Shown here in pieces: positions 27,301 through 32,000 of a stretch of DNA of 32,000 nt. The position numbers and the translations under genes are program-made. The stretch is from an uncultured bacterium. Lineage in GTDB: Bacteria; Oederibacteriota; Oederibacteriia; Oederibacteriales; Oederibacteriaceae. Location of the stretch: NCBI GenBank assembly GCA_965112635.1, contig OZ218778.1, positions 1,796,404 through 1,828,403 on the forward strand, given 5' to 3'. The notes beneath the pieces are model-generated. The model made no database searches and had not been told where the DNA came from. It saw nothing but the letters and a program-made list of their open reading frames with translations. Position 1 is the first letter of the stretch, and each line of letters starts with the position of its first letter.

Positions 27301-30300
27301 GGCCTGAACGGCAATAGCACCATTTCCGGCCAGGTCTTTGACACCGCAGGTTATGGAGCCGGGAACCTTACCCTCATAGGATACAGGGTCGGAGATAACG
27401 TCATGCAGTTGGCTATCCCTATGATGATGGTAACTCCGGTAGGGTCGGCTTCACCTTATACCTATACTTTGCCAGTGGATACCACTTATGGGGGCTCGTG
27501 GAACATTGCGTTGATTGCCAATTTGCAATCCAATAGCTGGCCGACCTTCCTGGACGCCCTTGCTAATGTTCCAGCAGGATCCACAGGCCAGAATCTTACC
27601 ACTAACGGGGGACACAAAATTTCCGGAATGGTATTAGTAGGGGGGCAGACTTTTAGCCAGCTCGGTTATTTAAATAACAGCAGTAATTTACCTGTTTTTA
27701 TTTTTAATTCCAGCAATGTTTGGCGTGACGGAAACAGCCTGGACTCGTTGGGTAACTATATTTCACACCAGCTTCCTGACGGAACTTATACCCTGAAGCT
27801 TAACCAGAGATTTTTGAGTACTGCCCAGATCAGTCCGACCCTTGCGGGCGTTGACCTCTACAATCAGAACTTTAACCTTACCGTGGATCCCACACAGGAT
27901 ATCTTTTATCCCTATGCCAGCCAGCTCTATCCGGCCAACAATATGACCATTCTCAACAGCCAGCCGACCATCAGCGCGTCTCTGTCCGATGGGACGCTGG
28001 GCACTGCTATCCAGAACATCTCGACCAAAATAGACGGCGGCACGGTGGGGAATACTTTCAATTCCGGCGTGGTGAGCTTTAGCCCGGCTGCGGCTCTTTC
28101 CGGCGGGTCTCACAGTGCTGAGGTCAAGTTCAGTGATTCCGCCAGCCCTTCAGCCCACAGCCAGGATGAGGTCTGGACCTTCAGTATTGCCACCTCCACC
28201 AACACCCCTTCTTCCACGCTGACCTCTACGATGACACAAACGCCGACACCCTTGCCTACACCCGTTTTCACCAGTATCAACGGCGGGCCCAGCGCGTTCC
28301 TGGGCGAGGGTGCCACTGCCCAGACCATAACTATTGTCGGAAACAATTTTGGAGGAACCATCGGGTCAGTAAGTTTCAGCGGGGCTGGTGTCACAGTGAC
28401 CAGCTATCCAGCCTGGAACAACACTACTATCACTTTATCCGTCAATGTGGATACCTATGCTCCCACCAACACCATTCCCGACCGATTTCTCACTATTGTC
28501 AACGGGTCCAACGGCGGCTCCGCGATGACGGGAAATGTGTTTTATGTGGTGCCCCGGCCCAATGCCAGCATTACCACATTCATGTATCCTTCCAACCTGG
28601 GTCAGGGAGCTGTAAACGCTACCATCGATATCTTTGACCCCTCAGGATATTTCGGGTCAACTCCGGGCTCGCTCCTGCTGGATGCTCCCGGCCATACCAA
28701 TATCACCTCGTACAGCATTCAGGCGTGGGACAGTCATTCCATCACCATGACCGCCAGCGCTAGCAGCAGCGCTATTCCAGGCGACTATGGACTGACCATC
28801 ACCGCCTCTTCGGCCAGCGGATCCGGTATTGGTGTGTTTAATTGGTTCTCAGTTGTGCCCGGCCCCGTGGTCAACAGTGTTTCCACCACATCCAACCTCA
28901 ACTATCTGGGCCAGGGCGCAGTCAATCAGATTGTGAATGTCTATGGCGCTGGGTTTGGGGCTAGCCGTGGGACAAGCGGGTCAGTCAGTTTCAGTGGGCC
29001 CGGTATTACAGTAAACGGATATCCAAGCTGGAGCGATAGTCAGATACAGGTCAATGTATCTGTTGCGCTAAATGCTTGGACCACATCCCGGACGGTCACC
29101 GTGGTGAACGGCCTGAACTACGGCCAGGTAACCACGGGCAATATATTCAGCGTATCTCCTTCCCCCAATTCGTTCGGTTTCACGGTGATGACCCCTCCCG
29201 GCTTGTTCCAAGGGGCTAGCAACGTGACCATCAATCTCTATGACCCCAATGCGACTTTTGGGACCGCTCCTGGTTTGCTGCTGCTGGATAGCGCCAGCGG
29301 TAATGCCAACATTACCTCTTATAGCCCCAATATGTGGAGCGCTAATTCCATTACCCTGACCGCCAGCGTGAGCAGTACTGCCGCCTTTGGGTACTATGCC
29401 CTGACCATCACGGCGAATGTCGGTAACGGGTCCGGTGTCGGGGCTTTCAACGGGTTCCGCATCATCCCGTCGTCCACGGCTACAGCCACGGCAACGGCGA
29501 CGGCAACCAGCACCGCCACCGTGACGACCACGGCCACGCAGACAGCCACCCAGACGGCGACCCAGACGGCCACCAATACCGCCACAACCACAGCAACTAG
29601 CACGGCTTCTAGTACGGCTACCAATACGGCGACCCAGTCTGCCACAGCTACGAGCACGGCAGCATTCACAGGGACCTATACAGCTACGGGCACGGCTACC
29701 CAGACTGCCACGAATACAAACACCGAGACCGCGACCAGCACAGCAACAAATACGGAGACCCAGAGTGCCACTAATACGGCTTCCCAAACAGCATCCCAGA
29801 CCGTGACCCTGACGGCTACAAATACAGCTACGAATTCAGCGACGGCCACGGCCACCAATACGGTGACGCAGACCGCCACAGCCACTGGCACGGCAGCATT
29901 CACAGGGACCTATACAGCTACGGGCACGGCTACTCAGACTGCCACGAATACAAACACCGAGACCGCGACCAGCACAGCAACAAATACGGCTACCCAGACG
30001 GCCTCCCAGACGACCACTCAGACCACCACGGCAACGGGCACGGCAGCATTCACAGGGACCTATACGGCCACAGGAACGGCTACCCAGACGGTTACGAATA
30101 CGGACACCCAGACTGGGACCAGCACAGCTACAAATACGGCTACCCAAACCTCCAGCCAGACGGCTTCCCAAACAGCATCCCAGACCACAACCCAGACGGC
30201 CACCAATACCATAACGAATACAGCTACGGCCACAGTCACCAGCACGATCACACAGACCGCCACAGCCACGGACACGGCAGCATTTACAGGGACCTATTCA

Positions 30301-32000: not shown

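Follow-up and report, generated by a model that had tools for sequence, protein, structure and literature searches.

A 561-residue alternating-threonine tract in a giant predicted surface protein of an uncultured Oederibacteriota bacterium

The giant gene and its alternating-threonine tract

The stretch of DNA analyzed here (the window; 32,000 nucleotides, nt) corresponds to C1:1796404-1828403 in the genome of an uncultured bacterium of the Oederibacteriota (assembly GCA_965112635.1, contig OZ218778.1, forward strand), which is assembled as one contig (C1) of 2,876,006 bp. The window ends within a giant open reading frame (ORF) that runs from an ATG at 21379 (+), is still open at the window end, and reaches its stop codon 601 nt beyond, giving 3740 amino acids (aa) in total. 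An identical 3740-aa gene was called on an independent contig. Judged from its sequence features, the product is a predicted signal-peptide-bearing surface protein of the T9SS (type IX secretion system) kind, and its residues 2698-3258 form a 561-aa tract in which threonine alternates with a variable residue (X). A gene for a PorV/PorQ-family outer membrane barrel, whose GTG start was confirmed by an exact-product look-up, ends 14 nt before the giant ORF and encodes the likely partner of the giant protein.

Threonine contributes 257 of the 561 tract residues (46%), and its placement follows a strict parity. The 281 even positions hold 248 Thr, 26 Ser, four Ala, two Val, and one Gly, i.e., a hydroxyl residue at 274 of them (97.5%), compared to only nine Thr at the odd positions (binomial p = 1e-61 for the parity split). 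Five of the seven non-hydroxyl exceptions, including all four Ala and one Val, lie within TAAFT or TAVFT units, and the dipeptide register is maintained without any slip across the 1.68 kb of the tract. A first-pass annotation made from the letters alone had described an alternating-Thr tract of about 560 residues, and this description holds far beyond chance. The X residues are mostly Ala (95), Gln (36), Asn (28), Gly (18), Ser (17), Val (16), Leu (11), and Ile (11), with Lys, Arg, His, Cys, and Trp absent from the tract and Asp plus Glu totaling 14. Proline occupies only seven of the 280 X positions (3%), such that the Pro-Thr alternation characteristic of Pro-Thr (PT) linkers is not present. 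All four Thr codons are in use (ACC 105, ACG 89, ACA 44, ACT 19), and the T-X pattern is therefore held at the protein level rather than by slippage of a single hexamer.

The tract is punctuated by five turn-like units of the TAAFTGTY type (Table 1), the in-frame starts of which lie one base after the positions assigned in the first-pass annotation. Successive unit starts are separated by 234, 150, 234, and 216 nt; these spacings had been described as multiples of three and are in fact all multiples of six, thereby preserving the dipeptide register. The near-identity of the first two copies noted in that annotation was also confirmed, with one difference in 101 nt, and the remaining unit pairs are 72-88% identical. 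Tandem Repeats Finder identified periods of 150 and 384 nt in the tract plus short imperfect 12-nt arrays only, and autocorrelation of the X residues gave its strongest peaks at the duplication lags of 25, 39, and 64 dipeptides; besides these and the period of two, there was just a weak 12-nt signal. The final 250 aa of the tract are without turn units. No segment at least 90% identical was found between this tract and the other tracts of the genome, giving no sign of ectopic exchange. Codon differences among the five units comprise 88 synonymous and 68 non-synonymous changes; these counts, together with the hydroxyl occupancy and the use of four Thr codons, indicate purifying selection acting on the dipeptide register.

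Recombination between the near-identical units could alter the stalk length in steps of 25-39 dipeptides, making the tract a contingency region, and the first-pass annotation had anticipated both length variation and assembly breakage. Copies 1 and 2, which lie 234 nt apart in frame and in register, are identical at 100 of 101 nt, and the breakage was indeed observed: two Logan contigs of run ERR11523656 stop and restart exactly within these copies (Table 1), and the second of them terminates in the next giant gene, ~165 nt inside its tract. No variation in length was observed, two assemblies agreeing to the base. The European Nucleotide Archive (ENA) contig ERZ25039471 (230,765 bp) has no differences over window positions 10430-31365, including the whole tract, despite an indel elsewhere; this one-base difference, located 2.8 kb past the end of the window, marks it as a separate assembly. 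In addition, there is just one near-identical copy pair, the 12-nt arrays are short and imperfect, and no highly similar segment is common to the other tracts of the genome, making a contingency region very unlikely. A scan of metagenome contigs with the fibronectin type III (fn3) and CarboxypepD part of the protein returned one distant locus only. The genome carries one extra base relative to the short-read contig at each of C1:1831176 and C1:1833176 (2.8 and 4.8 kb past the window end), the first also being missing from the ENA contig and the second breaking a gene of 644 aa into two ORFs (406 and 255 aa) that overlap. Both are probably long-read indel errors.

The T-X pattern constitutes most inter-domain linkers of the giant protein. 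The shorter linkers have a looser register than the long tract and a higher Pro content (14-36% of X compared to 3%). No Pfam match was obtained with the whole 3540-aa in-window translation, and splitting at the low-complexity linkers gave weak to moderate matches to modules resembling the carbohydrate-binding modules (CBM) CBM_11 and CBM_4_9 and to immunoglobulin (Ig)-like modules. Downstream of the tract, PF00041 (fn3) scored 29.4 bits within the window (cut-off 25), and PF13620 (CarboxypepD_reg) scored 31.9 bits within the window (cut-off 32.3) and 59.9 bits on the C-terminal part extending beyond it.

Table 1. Features of the giant gene and its surroundings (window coordinates).
Feature	Position	Strand	Remarks
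PorV/PorQ-family outer membrane barrel gene	20430..21365	+	NF033709 157 bits (cut-off 90)
Giant ORF	21379..32000 and 601 nt beyond the window	+	Signal peptide, novel N-terminal modules, CBM-like, Ig-like, fn3, CarboxypepD_reg, C-terminal sorting domain
Signal peptide, ~31 aa, ending AYA-G	21379..21471	+	Basic region and hydrophobic core; predicted by sequence heuristic only
First (T/S-X)n linker, 134 aa, Pro-richer	23068..23469	+	87% hydroxyl at one parity; Pro 18% of X
Short (T-X)n inter-domain linker, 31 aa	23995..24087	+	
Short (T-X)n inter-domain linker, 27 aa	24646..24726	+	
Short T/P inter-domain linker, 21 aa	25255..25317	+	
Short T-rich inter-domain linker, 42 aa	25855..25980	+	Looser register
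Short (T-X)n inter-domain linker, 31 aa	28183..28275	+	
Long alternating-Thr tract, 561 aa	29470..31153	+	
Unit 1 (TAAFTGTY...)	29656..29754	+	Short-read contig ends inside, at 29683
Unit 2	29890..29988	+	Short-read contig restarts inside, at 29960
Unit 3	30040..30138	+	
Unit 4	30274..30372	+	
Unit 5 (TAVFTGTN variant)	30490..30588	+	
fn3 and CarboxypepD_reg-like domains between tract and sorting domain	31156..31998	+	Sorting domain lies beyond the window

On the opposite strand, six ORFs of 87-239 aa overlap the tract (window 29068-31196, -). These are not genes and arise because the reverse complement of the ACN-NNN composition has few stops. Elsewhere in the window, a 6S RNA (RF00013, 92.7 bits) is located at 7170-7355 (+) between zapA and an MgsA-type AAA+ ATPase gene.

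Sorting domain, anchor cassette, and distribution of the tracts

The last ~100 residues of the giant protein match the C-terminal domains of PorU (5e-12) and PorZ (3e-9). The family models score below threshold on this C-terminus (TIGR04183 18.6 with a cut-off of 23; PF18962 24.8 with a cut-off of 27), and paralogs in the genome pass the cut-offs (PF18962 27.7-28.3; FlgD_ig 57). An alignment of 10 sorting domains showed that only a G.Y motif is invariant, with most members also carrying a PNP-like motif and a basic last residue. An AlphaFold2 (AF2) model of the sorting domain, built with nine paralogs as the alignment, had a predicted local distance difference test (pLDDT) score of 87.3 and displayed a beta-sandwich of about seven strands, for which PorU 6za2 (TMq 0.73) and PorZ 5m11 were the top structural matches in the PDB and the FlgD Ig-like domain came next, none of them at E <= 0.001. 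In Porphyromonas gingivalis, PorU and PorZ retain their C-terminal domains and are held at the surface via PorV and PorQ (PMC5562754). Another giant ORF of 8355 aa also ends in the same sorting domain (C1:~29371-29664, -).

The PorV/PorQ family is represented in the genome by 37 matches, 31 of which exceed the cut-off. Genes of this family were found within 500 nt of a sorting-domain ORF in 25 of 35 cases (circular-shift null mean 3.7, maximum 12), which looks like one dedicated PorV/PorQ-like barrel per cargo protein. Examples are located at C1:2211921, 1854320, 2639053, and 1244269. Within the phylum, an unusual number of PorV paralogs (16-35) was also present in genome G095 and family f12. 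The catalytic part of the PorU sortase was not detected in the genome, and a 1851-aa ORF (C1:116670-119915, -) with five partial matches to SprA (TIGR04189), each below cut-off, is a candidate divergent SprA-like translocon.

In a six-frame scan of the genome, (T/S-X)n tracts of 20 aa or more were identified in 71 candidate ORFs; by the stricter criteria of a first scan, 14,510 residues belonged to tracts. The biggest cases are an ORF of 6061 aa, 4440 residues of which lie in tracts, and another of 4514 aa located 12 kb downstream of the gene described here. Tract-bearing proteins are strongly tied to secretion and sorting. A profile of the C-terminal domain retrieved 80 ORFs ending in a sorting domain, including 60 of the 71 tract ORFs (2x2 table 60/11/20/7649, Fisher p = 4e-121), and a signal-peptide-like N-terminus was present in 58 of the 71 compared to 609 among the 2417 candidate ORFs with a length of 200 aa or more. 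The tracts are also placed next to the anchor: in 37 of the 60 proteins, 20 aa or fewer separate the last tract from the sorting domain (median gap 13 aa), and the gap is ~230 aa in 12 others. Composition varies with length, as Pro makes up 18% of X in short tracts compared to 4% in tracts of at least 200 aa, where Ala (36%), Asn (14%), and Ser (11%) predominate. The tract in the giant protein is thus a typical example of a device spread through the genome and phylum, and within the genome the punctuating turn-like units and the off-anchor position are specific to it.

A 318-aa C-terminal cassette is common to 11 proteins at 70-99% identity, with N-terminal parts that are unrelated or 23-68% identical, and in all 11 the junction between head and cassette is a T-X tract of 94-910 aa. 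This suggests head swapping onto a common anchor cassette, with the tract serving as a junction that is free to vary in length. Among the heads examined are malectin, FG-GAP, DUF11/MG10, and peptidase/esterase modules. Cassette proteins include those encoded at C1 204124-207606, 219678-222776, 225343-229008, 371001-374633, 414296-417232, 1901894-1905550, and 1947329-1950280.

The distribution in the phylum was examined in 99 genomes, among which the genome containing the window is the sole member of its family, using the strict pattern (ACNNNN)x16, equivalent to (T-X)16, and a reversed-pattern control. Strict runs occurred in 81 of the 99 genomes and 17 or more families, usually with hundreds to thousands of overlapping matches per genome, and the control gave almost no matches. 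Five families (f3, f4, f11, f14, and f16) had no strict (T-X)16 runs. The tract-less genomes still contain 14-46 sorting-domain matches each, and in the 15 tract-less loci that were read, folded IPT-like or other domains abut the sorting domain directly. The sole detectable homologs of the N-terminal modules of the giant protein (27-30% identity) were at G002:C18:96670-97947 (-) and G039:C36:24600-25952, in giant ORFs of 9349 and 3337 aa that both belong to tract-less families. All of the 3337-aa ORF and 6655 aa of the 9349-aa ORF were read, and no T-X runs and almost no low complexity were present in these portions. Since tract-less relatives keep the sorting domain, the tract is a dispensable add-on, inserted between folded domains and the anchor, that sorting-domain function does not need, as expected of a spacer.

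The same data bear on whether the tract is neutral low-complexity filler that was expanded by duplication, with its length, conformation, and modification unselected. The recent internal duplications (periods 150, 234, and 384 nt), the wide range of tract lengths among proteins sharing one anchor cassette, and the relatives that do without tracts would all fit such filler. It does not explain a hydroxyl residue at nearly every alternate position despite four Thr codons, the excess of synonymous over non-synonymous differences, the complete exclusion of basic residues, Cys, and Trp, or a pattern kept across most of the genomes and families compared. Neutral filler is thus considered quite unlikely.

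Among bacteria as a whole, strict runs that extend over 30 dipeptides or more are common and are mostly (TP)n or TPTxT; they occur in Chloroflexota, Binatia, Verrucomicrobia, delta-proteobacteria, Margulisiibacteriota, and metagenome-assembled genomes labeled candidate division FCPU426. Doud et al. equated FCPU426 with Goldbacteria and did not mention Thr linkers (PMC7031533), and no published description of such alternating-Thr stalks was found in the literature searched.

Conformation, modification, and probable role

Taken with the architecture of the protein, these results suggest that the tract probably forms an extended stalk or spacer within a giant surface protein anchored in the outer membrane. 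The protein would be exported by its signal peptide and then cross the outer membrane via a T9SS-like route, to be retained at the surface through the C-terminal sorting domain, for which the PorV/PorQ-like barrel encoded immediately upstream is the probable docking site. The tract offers no basic, aromatic-rich, or hydrophobic face able to build a core and would therefore act as a long tether, ~140-195 nm if extended, projecting ~2700 residues of binding modules off the cell. Most simply, the hydroxyl residues at every second position would supply dense O-glycosylation sites, stiffening the tether and shielding it from proteases.

O-glycosylation of the tract is plausible by analogy with systems that share its dipeptide design. 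A GT39 protein mannosyltransferase (PMT) decorates Pro-Thr linkers with up to 32-65 mannoses (PMC12757957), the stalks of serine-rich repeat proteins have the dipeptide consensus SX and an extended structure (PMC2952246), and nearly every Ser of Ser-Asp repeats bears a glycan, a modification that protects against proteolysis (PMC3794999). Candidate enzymes are encoded in the genome by 26 matches to PMT_2, of the C-type glycosyltransferase fold (GT-C), 23 of which exceed the cut-off and most of which lie in ORFs of 500-1500 aa. The same ORFs also give weak matches to PMT, and seven Wzy_C matches were found in the genome. Many of the PMT_2 matches are in ORFs of ~950-1050 aa and nine are clustered at 1.11-1.15 Mb, with examples at C1 900466, 1007494, 1113217-1145529, and 2610792-2627420. 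The earlier suggestion of a heavily O-glycosylated spacer divides into two parts: the architecture and the comparison with relatives support the spacer well, and glycosylation is an inference from the analogies above.

Several observations weigh against a glycosylated, extended stalk. The tract is Pro-poor, which deprives it of the customary source of stiffness in linkers and leaves room for beta structure, and a single-sequence AF2 prediction of window 29461-30360 (residues 2695-2994) gave long beta hairpins (pLDDT 46.9, predicted template modeling score, pTM, 0.46). The tract is not adjacent to the sorting domain but separated from it by 390 aa. The PMT_2 genes are no closer to tract genes than expected by chance (P = 0.72) and the Wzy_C association is marginal (P = 0.035). 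No glycosyltransferase gene was present in the window or within ~17 kb downstream, where the first-pass annotation had proposed looking for one. Finally, PMT_2 copy number across the phylum did not separate genomes with tracts from those without, as the tract-less family f4 has 15-33 PMT_2 matches; the PMT_2 expansion is phylum-wide rather than specific to tract-bearing lineages.

The predicted hairpins raise the alternative of a folded, fibrous beta ribbon, built of two-stranded hairpins with AAFTGTY turns and one all-Thr face, that may self-associate into a sheet or coat. In the AF2 model of the sub-segment, a prediction that had been proposed as a check and returned hairpins of low confidence, eight strands of 19-23 residues are joined by turns at 69-72, 147-150, 197-200, and 275-278 that coincide with the four TAAFTG units. 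A strict period of two is a beta-strand signature, and the Pro depletion of the long tracts relative to the short ones points in the same direction. These indications are offset by the low scores of a single-sequence model and the tendency of AF2 to put turns at any Gly, by an X face of mostly Ala, Gln, Asn, Ser, and Gly that leaves neither face able to form a hydrophobic core, and by the 250 aa at the end of the tract, where turn units are lacking. The alternation also occurs in Pro-rich short linkers, where sheets cannot form. A beta ribbon is on balance unlikely.

The first-pass annotation had also compared the tract, speculatively, to the TxT ladders of ice- or mineral-binding proteins. 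As a Thr ladder of the kind found in TxT antifreeze beta-solenoids, the tract would bind ice, minerals, or polysaccharide. A strand conformation would put all Thr on one side, which is an argument from geometry only. The tract has no solenoid coil repeat of 12-19 aa, the X autocorrelation peaking mainly at the duplication lags, and contains neither Cys nor Ca-binding motifs. The same pattern is the ordinary linker of 71 unrelated secreted proteins, hydrolases and lectin-like proteins included, and the only matches from a sequence search of the PDB were (TP)n linkers plus a single repeat peptide that is unrelated. The ladder comparison is therefore not upheld, and such a binding function is considered highly improbable.

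The preferred reading of the tract as a stalk also admits a broader version, held here as rather doubtful, in which (T/S)-X is the sequon of a phylum-wide O-glycosylation system, periplasmic or at the surface, that is run by the expanded PMT_2 (GT-C) family and builds a mucin-like coat of 100-1000-nm stalks around the cells, together with per-cargo barrels and a sortase-less T9SS. If so, the long Pro-poor tracts with AAFTGTY turns would be defined hairpin ribbons rather than random tethers.

In this poorly known candidate phylum of polymer degraders, alternating-Thr stalks account for a considerable part of the secreted proteome, amounting to more than 14,000 residues in the 2.9-Mb genome. They disrupt short-read assembly and gene calling and mark the surface proteome, are strong candidates for dense O-glycosylation by a bacterial system outside known models, and constitute natural tethers of defined register and widely differing length. 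The tract in the window adds little to the more extreme copies in the same genome save for its turn-like units and off-anchor position.

Comparison with known systems

Fish antifreeze glycoproteins, (Ala-Ala-Thr)n, are likewise Thr/Ala-rich and low-complexity and depend on glycosylated Thr, but are small soluble peptides. They differ from the tract in a period of three compared to two, and nothing about the tract points to a role with ice.

Two groups of known linkers and stalks resemble the tract in design. The PT linkers of Cellulomonas fimi (Cex/CenA, Celf_3184) and Caldicellulosiruptor bescii (CelA, 'TPTPTATATP') also have Thr at every second position and lie between folded modules of secreted proteins, and the short linkers of the giant protein are of this Pro-rich kind. 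PT linkers are heavily O-mannosylated by a GT-C enzyme (GT39 PMT) and thought to be protease-protected (PMC12757957). In contrast, the tract is 10-20 times longer (561 aa), contains hardly any Pro, its X residues being mostly Ala, Gln, Asn, and Ser, includes aromatic-Gly units, and is carried by a T9SS-type cargo protein of a diderm instead of a free enzyme. The stalks of Fap1, GspB, SraP, ClfA, and Sdr proteins of Gram-positive cocci also consist of hundreds to thousands of residues of hydroxyl-X dipeptides. These SX or Ser-Asp stalks project distal binding domains from the anchor and nearly every Ser is O-glycosylated (PMC2952246, PMC3794999). The tract uses Thr instead (248 Thr compared to 26 Ser) and belongs to a diderm with a T9SS-like sorting domain rather than LPXTG; it has no sequence homology with these stalks, and the likeness is one of analogy rather than family membership.

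The C-terminal anchor most resembles the P. gingivalis system. The beta-sandwich of the giant protein is closest to PorU and PorZ in both sequence and predicted fold, and a PorV/PorQ-family gene adjoins it. Bacteroidota cargo proteins are not known to have (T-X)n stalks of such length. The system described here differs from that of P. gingivalis in having only a divergent SprA-like ORF and in belonging to an organism outside the Bacteroidota, in which most of the PorV/PorQ-family matches are paired with cargo genes.

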